Part shown: in pieces, positions 58,032 through 63,803 of the stretch | How the letters are laid out: each line of letters starts with the position of its first letter | Numbering within the stretch: the stretch's first letter is position 1 | Assembly: GCA_049520275.1 (NCBI GenBank) | Contig: JBEKPY010000032.1 | Location: 26,277-90,276, forward strand | Length of the DNA stretch: 64,000 nt | DNA from: Bryobacteraceae bacterium | GTDB lineage: Bacteria > Acidobacteriota > Terriglobia > Bryobacterales > Bryobacteraceae | Direction of reading: 5' to 3' | Notes under the pieces: model-generated | What the model was told of the DNA's origin: nothing | Database searches by the model: none | Seen by the model: only the letters and a program-made list of their open reading frames with translations | Translations under genes and position numbers: made by a program

Positions 58032-59461
58032 ACATCATGCAACCTCGCACCATCGTTGAAAAAATCTGGGACAGCCACGTGGTCGCCGAAAACCCCGGCG
58101 CGCCGCCCCTTATCTACATCGACCTGCACCTGGTCCACGAAGTCACCTCGCCGCAGGCCTTCTCCGGCCTGCGCGAGCGCGGTCTGAAAGTGCGCCGGCC
58201 GGACCGCACCTTCGGCACGGTGGATCACAGCATTCCCACCACGCCGCGCGGGCTGCCCATCGTCGATCCGATCGCCGCTGCGCAGGTGAATCAATTCGAA
58301 ACCAACTGCCGAGATTTCGGCATCCCCTTCTTCGGGCTGCATAGCGAGCACCAGGGCATCGTGCACGTGATCGGCCCCGAGCAGGGCCTCACCCAGCCGG
58401 GCATGACGCTGGTCTGCGGCGACAGTCACACCGCCACGCACGGGGCGTTCGGCGCGCTGGCCTTCGGCATCGGCACCAGCCAGGTGGAGCACGTGCTGGC
58501 CTCCCAGTGCCTGCTGCAGCAGAAGTCGAAGACCTTCCAGGTGCAGGTGGACGGCACGCTTCACTCCGGCGTCGGCGCCAAGGATATCATCCTCGCGCTC
58601 ATTACGAAGATCGGCATCGGCGGCGGCACCGGCTGCGTGATCGAGTACACCGGCCCGGCCATTCGCGCGTTGTCCATGGAAGAGCGCATGACCGTGTGCA
58701 ACATGTCCATCGAGGGCGGCGCGCGGGCCGGTCTTATCGCCCCGGACGACACCACGTACAACTTCCTTCACGGCCGGCCGTTCGCCCCGAAGGGCGCAGC
58801 ATGGGAGGCTGCGTTGAAGCTCTGGAAACAGCTCCCCACCGACGACGGCGCCGTCTATGATCGCTCGGTGACCATCGACGCCTCCGCGCTCGAGCCGATG
58901 GTCACGTTCGGCACTAACCCGGGCATGGGCATGCCGATTTCGGGCTCGGTTCCCGATCCGGCGACGGTCGCCGATCCGCTGGAGCGCGAATCTCTCGCCA
59001 AAGCCCTGCGCTATATGGACCTCGAACCCGGTACGCCCATTGAGGGTCACGCCGTCAACGTGGTGTTCATCGGAAGCTGCACCAACTCGCGCATTTCCGA
59101 CCTGCGCAGCGCGGCCACCGTGCTGAAAGGCCGCAAGGTGGCGCCGGGCGTCCGCACCCTGGTGGTGCCCGGCTCGATGGAGATCAAACGCCAGGCCGAG
59201 GCCGAAGGGCTCGATCGGGTTTTCCGCGAGGCCGGCGCCGAGTGGAGGGAAGCGGGCTGCTCCATGTGCATCGCCATGAACGGCGATCAACTCCAGCCCG
59301 GCGAATACAGCGTCTCCACCAGCAACCGCAATTTTGAAGGCCGTCAGGGCAAGGGGGGCCGTACGTTTCTGGCCAGCCCGCTGACCGCCGCCGCCAGCGC
59401 CGTTGTCGGCGCGGTAACCGACGTAAGGAAACTGCTCAATGGAAAAATTCACGCCGTTTGA
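58028..59461 (+). CDS. leuC: 3-isopropylmalate dehydratase large subunit
   Basis: Aconitase-family motifs ([23 protein letters not shown]; Fe-S cysteines [15 protein letters not shown]). Confidence 0.9.
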
Positions 59462-60014
59462 AAGCCAGTTCGTGACGCTGCCGGTGGACAACATCGACAC
59501 CGATCAGATCATCCCGGCGCGGTTTCTGAAGACTATCTCGAAGGCCGGGCTCGGCGACCAGCTTTTCTACGACTGGCGCTACGACTCGACGGGCGCGCCC
59601 CGGCCCGACTTCGTGCTGAACAAGCCGGAGTCGAAGGAGCGCCGCATCCTGCTGGGCGGCGACAACTTCGGCTGCGGCAGCTCGCGCGAGCACGCGCCGT
59701 GGGCGCTGACCCAGTACGGCTTCCGCGCCGTGATCAGCACGTCGTTCGCGGACATCTTCCGCCAGAACGCGCTGAAGAATTCGCTGGTGCCGGTGGTGGT
59801 GCCGCGGGACGTGCATGCCTGGCTGTTCGCGAATCCCGAGGCCACGCTGGCGTTGGATCTTGCCGGCCAGGCGCTGATCCTGCCCGGCGGCCGCCGCGTC
59901 GAGTTTCCCGTGGAGGCCTTCGCGAAGCACTGCCTGCTGGATGGCGTGGACGAGCTCGGCTACATCCTGCAACACGAAAGCGCCATCGCCGCCCACGAAA
60001 TTAGGCGAAATTAG
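59439..60014 (+). CDS. leuD: 3-isopropylmalate dehydratase small subunit
   Basis: [30 protein letters not shown]; the last six codons (HEIRRN) and the stop lie inside a tandem CGAAATTAGG repeat abutting the RAYT element. Confidence 0.9.
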
Positions 60015-60023
60015 GTGACGAAA

Positions 60024-60752
60024 TTAGGTGACGTACACCTCATTTCCGAATTTCGGTTTGCGCCCTCGCTTCTGCGGTCGAACCGGCCGCCCGAGACATA
60101 CCTCCATCCGTTCCAGAAACTCGACGTCCCCAATGGGCCGGCCCGTCTCGTTCGCCTGCCGGAATCGCTCAACGAACCCGGCATCACGCACGCCGAGTTC
60201 CAGGACTTCGGCCCAGCTCCGCCTTGTGTAGTTGTCTCTCCAGCGCGCCATATCGAGCGTAACCGGCGTGTTGCGTCCCTCAACATGCGTCGCAGCGCTG
60301 GACCACGGCCAGGCGAGCGCACAACTCACCATACCCGCCCGAACCGGGTTCTGCTCCACATAACACAGCGCGTTCCACAAATGCCGATTGTCGAGTGGGC
60401 ACGACCGGTAACGCCCCTGCCAAAGCTGCCCGGTCTGTCCCCGTTGTACGTGAAGCCATCGTGAGCACCCATGATTGGTGAGGCGGAATGTCCACGCCAT
60501 CGAGGCGAGGCCGTCTGGCTCGCACACAACGTGGTAGTGGTTGCCCATGAGGCAGTAACCCAGGATTCTCAACCCGTACTGCTGGCTGTACTTCTCCAGA
60601 AGCTGCAGAAAGATGCGGCGATCCAGGTCGGAGAAAAATACGTCCTCGCAATGGTTTCCGCGCTGCACAACATGGACGGGCACGCCGGGAACCACAAGCC
60701 GGGAGATATGGGGCATAACCTCGATGTGCCCTCGCGCGGGCTTCCCTCTCAC
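60024..60752 (-). CDS. REP-associated tyrosine transposase (RAYT) / IS200-family Y1 HuH transposase
   Basis: 242 aa; HuH motif GNHYHVV, downstream QGRY catalytic Tyr region, VHVVQRGN N-terminal motif; ORF 3' end reads through the left TIR. Confidence 0.75.
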   Translation of the reverse strand: MRGKPARGHIEVMPHISRLVVPGVPVHVVQRGNHCEDVFFSDLDRRIFLQLLEKYSQQYGLRILGYCLMGNHYHVVCEPDGLASMAWTFRLTNHGCSRWLHVQRGQTGQLWQGRYRSCPLDNRHLWNALCYVEQNPVRAGMVSCALAWPWSSAATHVEGRNTPVTLDMARWRDNYTRRSWAEVLELGVRDAGFVERFRQANETGRPIGDVEFLERMEVCLGRPVRPQKRGRKPKFGNEVYVT

Positions 60753-60783
60753 GTTCGTAATTCGGAAATGAGGTGTACGTCAC
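60028..60783. mobile_element. RAYT/IS200-like element: HuH Y1-transposase gene bounded by perfect 24-bp terminal inverted repeats (GTGACGTACACCTCATTTCCGAAT)
   Basis: TIR-L 60028-60051, TIR-R 60760-60783 (24/24 match); each TIR contains a small CCGAA-T-TTCGG hairpin. Left flank carries 2.8 tandem copies of CGAAATTAGGTGA (59996-60031). Confidence 0.75.
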
Positions 60784-60833
60784 TGTTTTGGACTACAATC
60801 TCTACTAGACCCAGGAGATCCCAGGGTAAGCTC

Positions 60834-61262
60834 ATGCACATCTCTGTCAAAGGCGAGTACGCCTTGCACGCGCTCTTCGACCTGGCCATGCAGCGCACTC
60901 GCGAACCGGTCAAGATCGCCGGTATCGCCAAACGCCAGAAGATCCCGCAGAAGTTCCTGGAACTCATCCTCGCCGGTCTGAAACAGGGCGGCTTCGTGGA
61001 GTCGCGCCGCGGCGCCGAGGGCGGCTACTTGCTGGCGCGCCCGGCCGACGCCATCACGGTAGGAGAAGTGCTGAGGTTCATCGAGGGCAGCCGGAGTAAC
61101 AACTCGCCGAAACAAGGCCCCAACGACGACGATCCCTTCGCCGACATGTGGCGCCGCGTCGACCACTGCATCGCCAACATCGTCGACCGCACCACGTTTT
61201 CCGAACTCTGCCGCGCCTGGCAGGAAAACCGGGCGCGCTACATCCCCAACTGGGAGATCTAA
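60834..61262 (+). CDS. Rrf2-family transcriptional regulator (CymR/IscR-like), upstream of cysK
   Basis: Start [20 protein letters not shown] (Rrf2 HTH), 143 aa; stop overlaps the cysK ATG (TAATG). Confidence 0.8.
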
Positions 61263-62218
61263 TGTTCTTCGAAGATAATTCACTCAGTATCGGCAGGACC
61301 CCGCTGGTGCGGCTCAACCGCGTCATCGATGGCGCGCCCGTCACCATGCTGGTCAAGATTGAAGGCCGTGGACCGGCCTACTCGGTAAAGGACCGGATCG
61401 GCGCGGCCATGATCTGGGACGCCGAAAAGCGCGGCGTCCTCGGGCCCGGAAAGGAACTAATCGAGCCCACCAGCGGCAACACCGGGATCGCCCTCGCGTT
61501 CGTGGCGGCGGCCCGCGGCTATCCCATCACGCTGACCATGCCGGAAACCATGTCGCTGGAGCGGCGCAAGGTGCTGAAGGCTCTCGGAGCGAATCTAATC
61601 CTGACCGAAGGGGCGCTGGGCATGAAGGGCGCCATCGGCAAAGCCGAGGAGATCCTCGCCTCCGATCCCGATCGCTACGTGCTGCTGCAGCAGTTCAAGA
61701 ACCCGGCCAACCCGGAGATTCACTTCCGCACCACGGGCCCGGAAATCTGGGACGACACCGACGGTCAAATCGACGTGCTGGTCTCCGGAGTGGGCACCGG
61801 CGGAACCATCACCGGCGTATCGCGCTACATCAAGAACGAGAGGGGGAAGCCGATCCTTTCGGTGGCGGTGGAACCCTCCAACAGCCCGGTAATCACTCAG
61901 GCGAAGAAGGGCGAGCCGCTGAAGCCGGGCCCGCACAAGATTCAGGGTCTCGGCGCGGGGTTCATTCCGGACACGCTGGATCTGGCCATGGTGGATCGCG
62001 TGGTGCAGGTGACCAACGAAGAGTCCATCGAGATGGCCCGGCGGTTGTCGCGCGAGGAAGGGATCCTGTCCGGCATCTCCTGCGGCGCGGCGGTGGCCGG
62101 CGCGGTGAAAGTGGCCCAGGAGCCCGAGTCGAAAGGAAAGCTGATGGTGGTGGTGCTGCCCGATTCCGGCGAACGGTATCTCTCGAGCGTGCTGTTCGAG
62201 GGGCTTTTCAGCGAGTAA
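61262..62218 (+). CDS. cysK: Cysteine synthase A (O-acetylserine sulfhydrylase)
   Basis: [21 protein letters not shown] lysine [27 protein letters not shown]. Confidence 0.9.
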
Positions 62219-62618
62219 GGGCGCCCGGCCGCGCGGCGATATCCGGGAAGGCCTTCAGCAACGCTTTGTCGAACGTGGCCAGCGGACACCGCTCTTGCAC
62301 CGCCAGCTCGACGAAGAAGGTGTCGTAGACGGCAACGCCGGATGTCAGAGAGCGAAGCAGAGCGCCGTGGCAGAGCGAGCGCGTGGGAACGGACTCAATG
62401 CCAAGCTGGGCCGCCAGGCGCAGTCGAGTGGGCCCATCCTCGGGTGTCAGGACGCCGGTGCGAATGGCCATCCAAACCACGTTGACGAGTTCGGCTTCCC
62501 AGATCGCCGGAGCCATGCCGTTGCTGACGGTCGCCATGAACCGGCCGGCCTCGCCGGCAAAGCGTTCGGTTCCGAGGAGAAAGTACGCTGCGACGTTGGT
62601 GTCGATAACGGCCCTCAC
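62208..62618 (-). CDS. vapC: PIN-domain toxin VapC
   Basis: 136 aa; MRAVIDTNV... acidic PIN residues (D6, E, D...); overlaps vapB stop by 4 nt. Confidence 0.75.
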
Positions 62619-62842
62619 CCGCGGCCTGTTCCGATCCAGGCGTCGATCTCGCCGGCGGTCGGGCGGCGTGCCTGCTTCGCCCAGCCTGCTTCGATCTGTT
62701 CGACAACCGATCGCCGCTCGGCGACATGTTCTTCGAGGAGTTCCCGCACTTCCTGTTCCATCGAACGGTGGCGGCGGCGAGCCAGGGACTTCAGGGACTT
62801 CACGATTCGCGCGGGAACGTTGCGGATCGTCAGGGTAGACAT
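62615..62842 (-). CDS. vapB: VapB/FitA-type (ribbon-helix-helix) antitoxin
   Basis: Start MSTLTIRNVPARIVKSLKSLARRRHRSMEQEVRELL (ATG 62842), classical plasmid-stability-protein-type antitoxin N-terminus. Confidence 0.7.
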   Translation of the reverse strand: MSTLTIRNVPARIVKSLKSLARRRHRSMEQEVRELLEEHVAERRSVVEQIEAGWAKQARRPTAGEIDAWIGTGRG

Positions 62843-62854
62843 AATGCGCTCTAG

Positions 62855-62873
62855 TGCTAGCATCATGCTAGCA
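62855..62873. promoter_or_regulatory. Two copies of the palindromic octamer TGCTAGCA spaced by 3 nt, 13-31 nt upstream of the vapB start codon
   Basis: agTGCTAGCAtcaTGCTAGCAtag, in the 34-bp gap between vapB and the divergent hydrolase gene; candidate RHH-antitoxin operator. Confidence 0.4.
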
Positions 62874-62876
62874 TAG

Positions 62877-63803
62877 ATGATTATGCGAGCAATACTTCTC
62901 TCTCTTCTATGCGCCGCCGTGGCCATCGGTGAGATCCATCACAATCCGGGCAGCACAACGCCGGTGCCCCACGAGAAGTACATCCACGTTGTCAGCGAGG
63001 CCGATTCGCCGATCCAGCAGACTTACATCAAGGCCAGGGACGGCCTGTATATCGCCGCCGCGATTCGCAAGCCGAAAGGCGACGGCCGCTACCCCGCCAT
63101 CATCATGTTTCACGGCGCACCCGGCGGACGGGGCATGGAGCAACTGGTGGGATGGTCGAGGGGCGACTTCGGCGGGCCGGTGTGGGAACGGTTCCTGCAG
63201 GAAGGATATGTCGTCGTGGTGGCCGACTATCGGGGCGGCGACTGGAATCTCATGTCCGTGCCGTCGACGAACGGAATCGTTACTTCCATCGACGACGGGC
63301 TGGCGGCGATCGACTATGTCAGGTCGCTGCCGTACGTCGATCCGGGCCGTCTCAATCTCTACGGGGTCAGCCTGGGCGGCAACCTGGTGATGCAACTGGT
63401 CTCCCGCGTGACGGTGAACTCGGCCATCGTAGGCGCGCCCGCGGCGCTGTGGTTTCTGGGCATGACCTGGCCGGCCGGCGCGCCGTCCGGGCCGGATCGC
63501 GTCAAGGGCATGAAGCCCGACCCCGAGATTTCGCGCAGGAACATCGAGCCCATCCACACCCCGATTTTGATTCTGCAGGGGACCGCGGACGGCCTGATGC
63601 CCGTAGCCATCATGCTGCACGACGCGCTCGCCGCGGCCGGCAAGTCCGTACGCATGGAGGTCTACGAGAACGGCTACCACGACTTCTGCCTCGGGCCGCA
63701 GGGCCAGAAGCGCCCCGACCTGCCGCACGGCGAGATTCTGATGGACGCGGCTCTGGACGCGCTGGAGAAGTCCGTTCTCTTCGTGAAGGGCAAGCTGCAG
63801 TAA
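62877..63803 (+). CDS. Secreted alpha/beta-hydrolase (dienelactone hydrolase / S9 peptidase-like fold)
   Basis: Signal peptide MIMRAILLSLLCAAVAIG; nucleophile elbow GVSLGG; 308 aa. Confidence 0.7.
   Translation: MIMRAILLSLLCAAVAIGEIHHNPGSTTPVPHEKYIHVVSEADSPIQQTYIKARDGLYIAAAIRKPKGDGRYPAIIMFHGAPGGRGMEQLVGWSRGDFGGPVWERFLQEGYVVVVADYRGGDWNLMSVPSTNGIVTSIDDGLAAIDYVRSLPYVDPGRLNLYGVSLGGNLVMQLVSRVTVNSAIVGAPAALWFLGMTWPAGAPSGPDRVKGMKPDPEISRRNIEPIHTPILILQGTADGLMPVAIMLHDALAAAGKSVRMEVYENGYHDFCLGPQGQKRPDLPHGEILMDAALDALEKSVLFVKGKLQ

Follow-up and report, generated by a model that had tools for sequence, protein, structure and literature searches.

A probable resident REP-RAYT unit beside leuD in uncultured peat-soil Bryobacteraceae/Solibacteraceae, with tandem duplications at the outer edge of its repeats

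Among domesticated transposases that coexist with a mobile repeat population of their own, the best studied are the REP-associated tyrosine transposases (RAYTs), which are paired with repetitive extragenic palindromes (REPs) and with REP doublets (REPINs). Insertion sequences (ISs) of the IS200/IS605 family have left and right subterminal hairpins that differ from each other, occur in multiple copies together with their transposase, and insert 3' of a tetra- or pentanucleotide. To our knowledge, nearly everything known about RAYTs and REPINs comes from Group 2 and Group 3 enzymes of Gammaproteobacteria, and we know of no biochemistry for enzymes of the Group 1 or TIRYT type. The present work concerns 64,000 nucleotides (nt) of DNA from a Bryobacteraceae bacterium (contig JBEKPY010000032.1, positions 26,277 to 90,276), referred to below as the window, in which a Y1/HUH tyrosine transposase gene lies between inverted repeats and converges with leuD, the gene for the small subunit of 3-isopropylmalate dehydratase. 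With a probability of about 85%, this region is a resident REP-RAYT unit (a "REPtron/TIRtron") of uncultured peat-soil Bryobacteraceae/Solibacteraceae (Acidobacteriota).

RAYTs are described as single-copy genes that are largely vertically inherited and have REPs at their flanks, which spread as REPINs (PMC5581495, PMC3116915). Those of E. coli, Stenotrophomonas and Marinomonas cut at CT or CA dinucleotides beside the hairpin, and the GTAG foot is both recognition and guide sequence (PMC8266576). TIRYT genes are characterized by long inverted repeats, some of which overlap the 3' end of the gene and some of which are repeated as dimers (PMC3733652), and a clearly delimited group of them is acidobacterial (Di Nocera et al. 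2013, PMC3733652). These TIRtrons/TIRYTs correspond to subclass 2.1 of the TnpAREP-like proteins (Quentin et al. 2018, PMC6006769) and to RAYT Group 1 (Bertels et al. 2017, PMC5581495). For subclass 2.1 the published table gives no REP (PMC6006769), and for Group 1 only about 12 occurrences of the flanking 16-mer are tabulated (PMC5581495).

The RAYT gene of the window (60024-60716, minus strand) runs from an ATG at 60716 to a TAA stop at 60024-60026 and encodes 230 amino acids (aa). This start, which is the one used by gene callers, was retained; an in-frame GTG upstream, at 60752, would give 242 aa, and an exact-protein look-up with that longer form returned zero matches, whereas the 230-aa form is on record. 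The product matches Pfam Y1_Tnp with 32.4 bits (cut-off 23), and its sole NCBIfam match is REP_Tyr_transpos, the model for REP-associated tyrosine transposases (53.5 bits, E 2e-14). The HUH motif reads NHYH and the catalytic tyrosine is found within YVEQNPVRAG, both being invariant in a 23-sequence alignment, of which 28 invariant columns are also intact in the window protein. Other motifs are LWQGR and WPWSSA, as well as a conserved C-terminal region, TGRPxG...LGRxxRPQKRGRKPK. When solved structures were searched with a family profile, the best match was TnpARep of E. coli (4er8, E 4.4e-8), the TnpA structures of IS200/IS605 elements (2xm3, 2ec2 and 2fyx) reaching E values of about 1e-3 in the same search. 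The gene evolves under purifying selection (omega, the ratio of nonsynonymous to synonymous rates, is 0.08-0.19). It very probably encodes a RAYT-type HUH/Y1 transposase within a REP-RAYT unit, whose activity is predicted. A reading of the locus made earlier from the letters alone (the sequence-only reading) had already recognised a RAYT-type HUH/Y1 gene between inverted termini identical over 24 of 24 positions, and both the protein matches and the repeats described below agree with it.

Compared with described enzymes, the window RAYT resembles the TIRYT/subclass 2.1/Group 1 proteins in length (230 aa vs a median of 238 aa) and in its motifs, with NHYH, LWQ, YVEQNP and WPWSSA answering to the published signature NH[YF]H/WQ/Y..xNP/SS (PMC6006769). 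E. coli TnpARep, by contrast, has 165 aa; the conserved C-terminal region of the window protein is about 90 aa long. In this region the protein differs from TIRYTs: in a Pfam scan of 23 family members with E values up to 1, only Y1_Tnp was consistent, and no Bac_DnaA_C or HTH domain (HTH_23 or HTH_28-like) was detected at the C-terminus.

The gene is bounded on its 3' side by a left REP (60020-60056, plus strand), made of an outer arm AAATTAGG, a core GTGACGTACACCTCATTTCC from 60028 and an inner arm GAATTTCG, and on its 5' side by an inverted right REP (60755-60791, minus strand), in which core and inner arm are intact and the outer arm is degenerate. The two inverted arms, 60028-60055 and 60756-60783, are complementary at 27 of 28 positions (96%), the outer 24 nt perfectly so, and a search of the window for the arm 24-mer, at up to three mismatches, gave the two arms themselves and no other match, vs 0 expected. 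When a genome collection was scanned with a degenerate 20-mer taken from this arm, 19 stretches matched. Eleven are contigs of one metagenome-assembled genome (MAG), Bryobacteraceae SPRUCE 694, which hosts a 74%-identical RAYT, and three are contigs of the MAG that hosts an 86% homologue. Seven of the 11 SPRUCE 694 contigs carry two inverted copies, with starts 55-74 nt apart in six of them and 280 nt apart in one. The unit dispersed in this MAG, CTAATTCGGGGACGTACACCTCAATCCCCAATTAG, is the repeat that flanks its own RAYT, and since it is found on 11 contigs, REP type tracks RAYT type. The remaining five stretches are singletons from unrelated or distant taxa (Bacillus, Thermoplasmata, Acidimicrobiaceae, Peptostreptococcaceae and Acidobacteriaceae); they fit the estimate of chance matches and were set aside. 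Further near-complete single REPs with unrelated flanks are of the window type in L027 (SPRUCE 694) and L028 and of an AATTCC variant in L024.

A metagenome scan with the window-type 20-mer matched at least 120 loci and yielded, among the matches listed, 117 non-redundant REP copies with unrelated flanks, the repeat being present in more than 100 unrelated peat/soil contig contexts. Their 37-nt consensus, S.AA(T/A)TCG-GTGACGTACACCTCATTTCC-GAATTTCSG, forms a 7-bp stem, AATTCGG/CCGAATT, around a conserved 17-nt "loop", which is the most invariant part (GTGACGTACACCTC). Some 25 human-gut contigs (L040-L043 and about 20 more) matched by the 20-mer GTGACGTACACCTCAATTCC were discarded as one unrelated conserved sequence, GTTCACTTTCGCCTGGCTCA...TTCGCTTATGCC, which is without REP arms and matches by coincidence. 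An inverted partner lies 6-74 nt away on the inner side in 49 of 95 listed copies, vs a direct partner in one. The conserved arm stands symmetrically at both outer ends of such doublets, where it pairs with the inner arm, and both RAYT-flanking REPs have the same orientation as the dispersed doublets, outer end out. The RAYT gene is also flanked by inverted REPs in L013, L017, L020, L057, L165 and L168. The dispersed REPs, their doublets, the shared orientation and the TnpARep-like profile match, taken together, lead to the assignment of the locus to the REP/REPIN-RAYT systems, and the inverted termini are in all likelihood REPs. The sequence-only reading had proposed comparing the flanks of other copies; the outer arm plus GTGA is conserved in the 117 listed copies, and their flanks are unrelated.

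On its inner side, from +13 to +28 (60041-60056 in the window), the REP has a built-in 8-nt periodicity, CATTTCCG AATTTCCG, represented in the window by CATTTCCG AATTTCGG, and some copies (L058, L128, L152) contain an extra TCATTTCC unit. Two metagenome contigs of the window's population, L010 and L012, stop 5 nt beyond CGTACACC in the left REP, which is where an assembly that breaks at repeated sequence would be expected to end. The REP was not placed in the superfamily of CGTC-tagged REPs, since the bottom-strand CGTC lies inside the conserved loop and is not an unpaired terminal tag. REP-like stretches of 20-27 nt also occur in frame within genes; they always read G(N/I)EVYVT, the frame of the RAYT C-terminus, and are conserved across diverged samples. 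Long stop-free frames proved uninformative as evidence for such intragenic REPs in this GC-rich DNA (95 of 136 copies passed), and only three cases, backed by Pfam and by conservation across samples, were kept: selA (L024 at about 2484, L090, L151; Pfam SelA, 414 bits), rimM (L045 at about 5280, L105, L116; Pfam RimM confirmed) and a glycosyltransferase-like gene (L061 at about 2765, L069, L101, L028/L145; Pfam below cut-off).

The system thus described shares several features with the REPIN-RAYT systems of Gammaproteobacteria, exemplified by TnpARep with REP-BIME in E. coli and by the REPINs of Pseudomonas fluorescens: one HUH/Y1 gene between inverted palindromic repeats, a repeat dispersed mostly as inverted doublets, a REP type that co-varies with the RAYT type, and a gene kept at one syntenic locus under purifying selection. 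It differs from Groups 2 and 3 in that no GTAG is found at the REP foot in the consensus of the 117 listed copies, and from the gammaproteobacterial systems in its 7-bp stem with a 17-nt invariant loop and in its host phylum. With TIRYTs it has in common a gene between long terminal inverted repeats (TIRs), one of them extending into the gene's 3' end ("3'ov"), and TIR copies found singly and as dimers. By contrast, the published TIR motif GGGGWSAS is close but unmatched, the corresponding sequence being GGGGACGT in the sister type and GGTGACGT in the window type, and the flanking repeat described here is a hairpin-forming REP with about half of its copies in doublets, unlike what is tabulated for subclass 2.1/Group 1. 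The closest known system appears to be RAYT/REPIN, of the TIRYT/Group 1 type, a membership assigned by motifs and literature and not by clustering with reference sequences. IS200/IS605 elements such as IS608 and ISDra2 share with this locus the HUH/Y1 core (Pfam Y1_Tnp), the lack of a classical target-site duplication and expected substrates in the form of single-stranded DNA hairpins. They differ in that the ends are here symmetric inverted repeats of 24-28 bp at a single locus and in the weaker profile match (about 1e-3 vs 4e-8). A second copy of the whole element was not found in the 64-kb window, nor was a pair of empty and filled sites. Having been looked for and not found, multiple copies and asymmetric ends, the defining features of IS200/IS605, argue against placing the element in that family.

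The same conclusion follows from the inheritance of the locus. The exact LeuD and the exact 230-aa RAYT proteins were each found on several metagenome contigs from peat and soil, without exception in the same arrangement, and the exact RAYT protein is found on seven contigs at one locus only, so that there is no sign of a multicopy IS. The order leuD-REP-RAYT-REP-Rrf2-cysK is common to at least six diverged Bryobacteraceae/Solibacteraceae lineages, whose RAYTs are 71-100% identical. Identity to the window protein is 86% in L013, 81% in L057 (by tblastn), 77% in L020, 75% in L168, 74% in L017 and 71% in L165. On the 5' side of the gene, and transcribed divergently from it, lie in the window an Rrf2-family regulator (60834-61262, plus strand) and a PALP/cysK-like gene (61262-62218, plus strand); RAYT adjoins this Rrf2-PALP pair in all eight related loci examined. 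In the window, L013, L057, L103, L165 and L168 its neighbour on the other side is leuD, which converges with it and touches or overlaps it. A 53% homologue is located elsewhere, next to secA. Synonymous divergence (dS) between the window and L013 or L103 is 0.31-0.40 for RAYT and 0.35-0.43 for leuD, Rrf2 and cysK. The shared synteny, the purifying selection and a dS equal to that of the neighbours indicate a resident gene and not an insertion sequence. Similarly, the proposal that the element had been inserted flush against leuD does not hold, as the same order is present in L013, L057, L168 and L165, where the leuD stop already lies in the REP. An empty site, with leuD adjoining Rrf2 and no RAYT, was sought among the relatives and none was found; L169 was rejected as a candidate because other genes downstream and arm-like fragments look like a rearrangement, and L171 is too short to judge. 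Beyond the cysK-like gene, and before a DLH-family hydrolase, a toxin-antitoxin pair of a PIN-domain and a FitA-like ribbon-helix-helix (RHH) protein is encoded at 62208-62926 (minus strand); this pair of the window's population is not at the corresponding position in L013 or L016/L017.

The left REP also marks the end of leuD (59439-60014, plus strand; 191 aa, stop TAG at 60012-60014). The two genes are convergent with stop codons 9 nt apart, and the REP encodes the last eight RAYT codons (FGNEVYVT) and the RAYT stop. At this junction lies a tandem array (59996-60031, plus strand) composed of CGAAATTAGG at 59996-60005, CGAAATTAGGTGA at 60006-60018 and CGAAATTAGGTGA again at 60019-60031. Tandem Repeats Finder reports a period of 13 with 3.2 copies, and also a period of 10 with 2.0 copies, and the unit has three matches at up to one mismatch vs 0.04 expected. 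The last codons of leuD, CAC GAA ATT AGG CGA AAT TAG (59994-60014), are HEIRRN and the stop; as the sequence-only reading had it, the C-terminus (H)EIRRN and the TAG come from the 13-mer repeats, namely units 1 and 2. Since the leuD stop lies in unit 2 and that of RAYT in unit 3, both convergent stops are inside repeats. Unit 3 is the genuine outer arm of the left REP with its first four core nucleotides, GTGA, and is repeated locally by units 1 and 2. In an alignment with the REP consensus, CGAAATTAGGTGA covers positions -9 to +3, the outer stem arm (with AATTAGG for AATTCGG) and GTGA, and is therefore part of the repeat. The suggestion that the 13-mer is a flanking target or a left-end guide does not survive this alignment. 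The C-to-A change at -2, found in 11 of the 117 listed copies, creates TAG on the plus strand, the leuD stop, and TAA on the minus strand, the RAYT stop. All contigs of the window's population that span the array have it in identical form. As single-stranded DNA, the left end folds at -7.8 kcal/mol over 40 nt (z -3.0) and at -13.7 kcal/mol over 73 nt (z -3.1), and these folds are significant only through the outer arm that the tandem unit contributes.

The conserved domain of the window LeuD is complete (TIGR00171, 198.7 bits, with profile positions 1-188 of 188 matched by residues 1-183), and the Pfam Aconitase_C and NCBIfam leuD models score well over their cut-offs. The remodelling of the leuD end, which had also been claimed from the letters alone, concerns the tail. 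The canonical tail, ...AA(Y/F)E.x(R/H)PxS(V/I)NTxx in proteins of 198-201 aa, is kept in 114 of 120 homologues, while the window protein ends in EIRRN and has lost about 12 residues (xRPISVNTLx). In the relatives the leuD reading frame enters the REP in different ways. LeuD ends with ...AYESARPISVNTLIR in L168, with ...AYESGRPISVNTLTPNR in L057 and with ...AWESTRPRSVSTIG in L013, the stop being in each case the TGA of the REP's GGTGA, and these three loci contain no 13-mer unit. L165, which has the other REP type, reads through the whole REP (...AYEKANSGTFTSIPN) to a TAG at its far end. L103, with 90.6% DNA identity to the window, has one CGAAATTAGGTGA and ends ...AAYEIR at the TGA of GGTGA; in the window, ...AAHEIRRN stops at the TAG in unit 2. 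Other tails in close relatives are ETRRVSMA and EKFPDQSNPAIRRAG. The leuD stop lies inside the REP in the six lineages examined (seven loci), and this series of junctions indicates that it has long been supplied by the REP. No relative lacking the element was found to carry the triple repeat, and the comparison of LeuD C-termini, also proposed in the sequence-only reading, was informative through the reverse case, L103, which has the element with a single unit. A side observation is L169 (700-800), where a LeuD 94% identical to that of the window has the tail EKFPDQSNPAIRRAG and no RAYT downstream, but only arm-like fragments (CAATTCGG, GGTGACGATTCGG, AATTCGG), followed by small open reading frames and a RelB gene.

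The leuD-REP junction is a rearrangement hot spot. In the window's lineage the earlier state was similar to L103, with a REP directly after ...AAYE and LeuD ending EIR-TGA, the canonical tail having been lost once the REP came to abut AAYE. Later came two local tandem duplications, of 10 and 13 nt, with the outer REP boundary as their common end point; they shifted the leuD stop to the TAG of the second unit and changed the tail to EIRRN.

Such duplications are not limited to the window. Among the matches listed, 17 of 139 REP copies (about 12%) have a tandem duplication that ends within a few bases of their outer edge, vs 1.8% of positions drawn at random from the same contigs (p about 1e-9, binomial). 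The mirror-image test inside the REP was discarded as a control because of the 8-nt internal periodicity of the REP consensus, and the comparison uses the random positions and a positional histogram. In the histogram of exact duplications, ten events end at -1 to +1 relative to the G of GTGACG, and two end at +6, one in L156 and the other being the 13-mer of the window, whose boundary was worked out by hand and added since the script had kept only the window's 10-nt period; the background is about 12 events over some 128 flanking positions. What stays constant is the boundary; the unit itself varies, being the canonical arm at some copies and, at others (L060, L121 and L071), flanking sequence unrelated to it. 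Two orthologous pairs document duplication in place. The REPINs of L119 (at 6686) and L127 (at 618) are identical at 586 of 589 positions, their sole difference being an 11-nt duplication, CGCTAATTCGG, that ends at CGG|TGACG, the outer boundary of the REP, and is a recent event. The second pair is L103 and the window. RAYT loci themselves show further reiterations: GAATTA three times at the REP outer edge in L017, (C)AATCTGGGCT three times at the same edge in L020, an arm and core in duplicate on the RAYT 5' side of L168 (2540-2620), the core as GTGACGTACACCGCATTTC... and then GTGACGTACACCTCATTTCC, together with a duplicated CCAAAACGGT, and three nested flank-plus-arm fragments in L013. Sequence and register of the duplicated unit vary between lineages. 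The boundary-anchored duplications are attributed to a process that would be tied to the REP end. One candidate is a RAYT nick at G|GTGACG or close to it, with slipped resynthesis or religation afterwards; the other is slippage of the polymerase at the hairpin.

By analogy with characterised RAYTs, the enzyme would bind the folded REP in single-stranded DNA, nick beside it and mobilise REP doublets in trans, its own gene remaining fixed at one chromosomal slot. A number of results weigh against a resident REP-RAYT unit of this kind. The NCBIfam score of 53.5 bits is below the curated cut-off of 80, and phmmer with the single sequence found no match among solved structures, so that a profile was needed. 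The 64-kb window contains no additional REP copy, dispersal being seen in the sequence family and in sister MAGs rather than in the genome itself. Of the small hairpins described by the sequence-only reading at each end, only the left one stands; the right end lacks a foldable outer arm, with CCAAAACA in place of xxAATTCG, a variant common to relatives, and folds no better than shuffled sequences (z +0.4 and +0.6). The proposed link of the duplications to RAYT nicking is an inference from sequence. Inheritance is also not purely vertical, given that against L165 and L017 the RAYT cassette has a dS of 1.6-2.1 and the flanks 0.26-0.43, and that in L013 the outer part of the other REP type (CTAATTCGGGGACGTT) has been retained as a stump just outside the REP of that locus. 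In the same vein, DNA identity of the window (60000-60800) to L165, L167 and L017 is 62-83% for the cassette between the REPs and 85-97% for the flanks. The roughly five-fold higher dS of the cassette and the stump in L013 suggest an exchange, and a reasonable reading is that the RAYT/REP type may have been replaced as a cassette at a fixed chromosomal slot. The stump in L013 (3925-3970, GTCTAATTCGGGGACGTT) lies on the RAYT 5' side, just outside the GTGA-type REP, with repeats of local flank (AGTCCAA...) on both sides.

Three other explanations have to be weighed against the resident unit and its proposed chemistry. An autonomous IS200/IS605-like element, recently inserted 3' of its target at leuD and with the 13-mers as reiterated target or left-end guide, would explain why a Y1/HUH gene sits between inverted ends and why dispersed copies conserve the sequence immediately beyond the core, as TTAC is conserved for IS608; selection of the cleavage site by a guide is, moreover, documented for RAYTs (PMC8266576). 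Its chances are nevertheless very slight, as at least six diverged lineages share the arrangement, with the exact protein at one locus only, and as the conserved arm is symmetric at both doublet ends and pairs with the inner arm. Furthermore, duplication without any new insertion has taken place between the 99.5%-identical L119 and L127 and between L103 and the window, and in L060, L121 and L071 what is duplicated is unrelated flank and not the arm. Improbable too, if less so, is that the REP and its extra arms are kept as a selected RNA that forms the 3' end of, or stabilises, the transcripts of the leu operon and of the convergent RAYT gene. A scan of 59800-61000 found no Rfam family, sigma-70-like promoter or intrinsic-terminator-like site, the extra units are missing in close relatives, and their sequence and register differ between lineages. 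What speaks for such an RNA is the position of the REP between convergent genes, the alternative pairings that three arms offer to the inner arm (73 nt, -13.7 kcal/mol, z -3.1), the fixation of the array in all contigs of the population, and the roles in transcription termination and mRNA stabilisation hypothesised for REPs (PMC3733652).

The third alternative accepts the REP-RAYT unit and holds that the array arose by ordinary hairpin-stimulated replication slippage, separate from RAYT chemistry. It comes fairly near an even chance. The units are short (6-18 nt, in two to three copies), the window junction has CGAA/CGTA microhomology, the left end forms a stable single-stranded hairpin, and Di Nocera et al. 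(PMC3733652) note that replication can stall, and the genome be destabilised, where REP dimers fold into large hairpins or cruciforms. The boundaries, at -1 to +1 and at +6 relative to GTGACG, lie inside the 7-bp stem and not at its base (-6 to -8), and the same boundary is used with or without a canonical arm, although neither point is decisive against slippage. A boundary inside the stem mildly favours a site-specific nick. It is a possibility, albeit a rather unlikely one, that the duplications at G|GTGACG or after GTGACG are in vivo footprints of RAYT nicking and faulty rejoining.

The resident REP-RAYT unit adds to what is described an acidobacterial clade in which a Group 1/TIRYT-like RAYT would have a cognate REP, doublets of it, and two co-varying RAYT/REP types that can be read from metagenomes. 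The left REP has long been common to two convergent genes, supplying stops to both leuD and RAYT, and in the conserved LeuD tail, replaced by residues that reiterated REP arms encode, coding sequence has been shaped by a REP. Through their position specificity, the duplications give a testable lead to the cutting site of such an enzyme. If they are indeed footprints of nicking, they would reveal the cleavage site of a RAYT of the Group 1/TIRYT type, and would mean that DNA beside the repeats, the 3' ends of leuD and similar housekeeping genes included, is still edited by a domesticated transposase.

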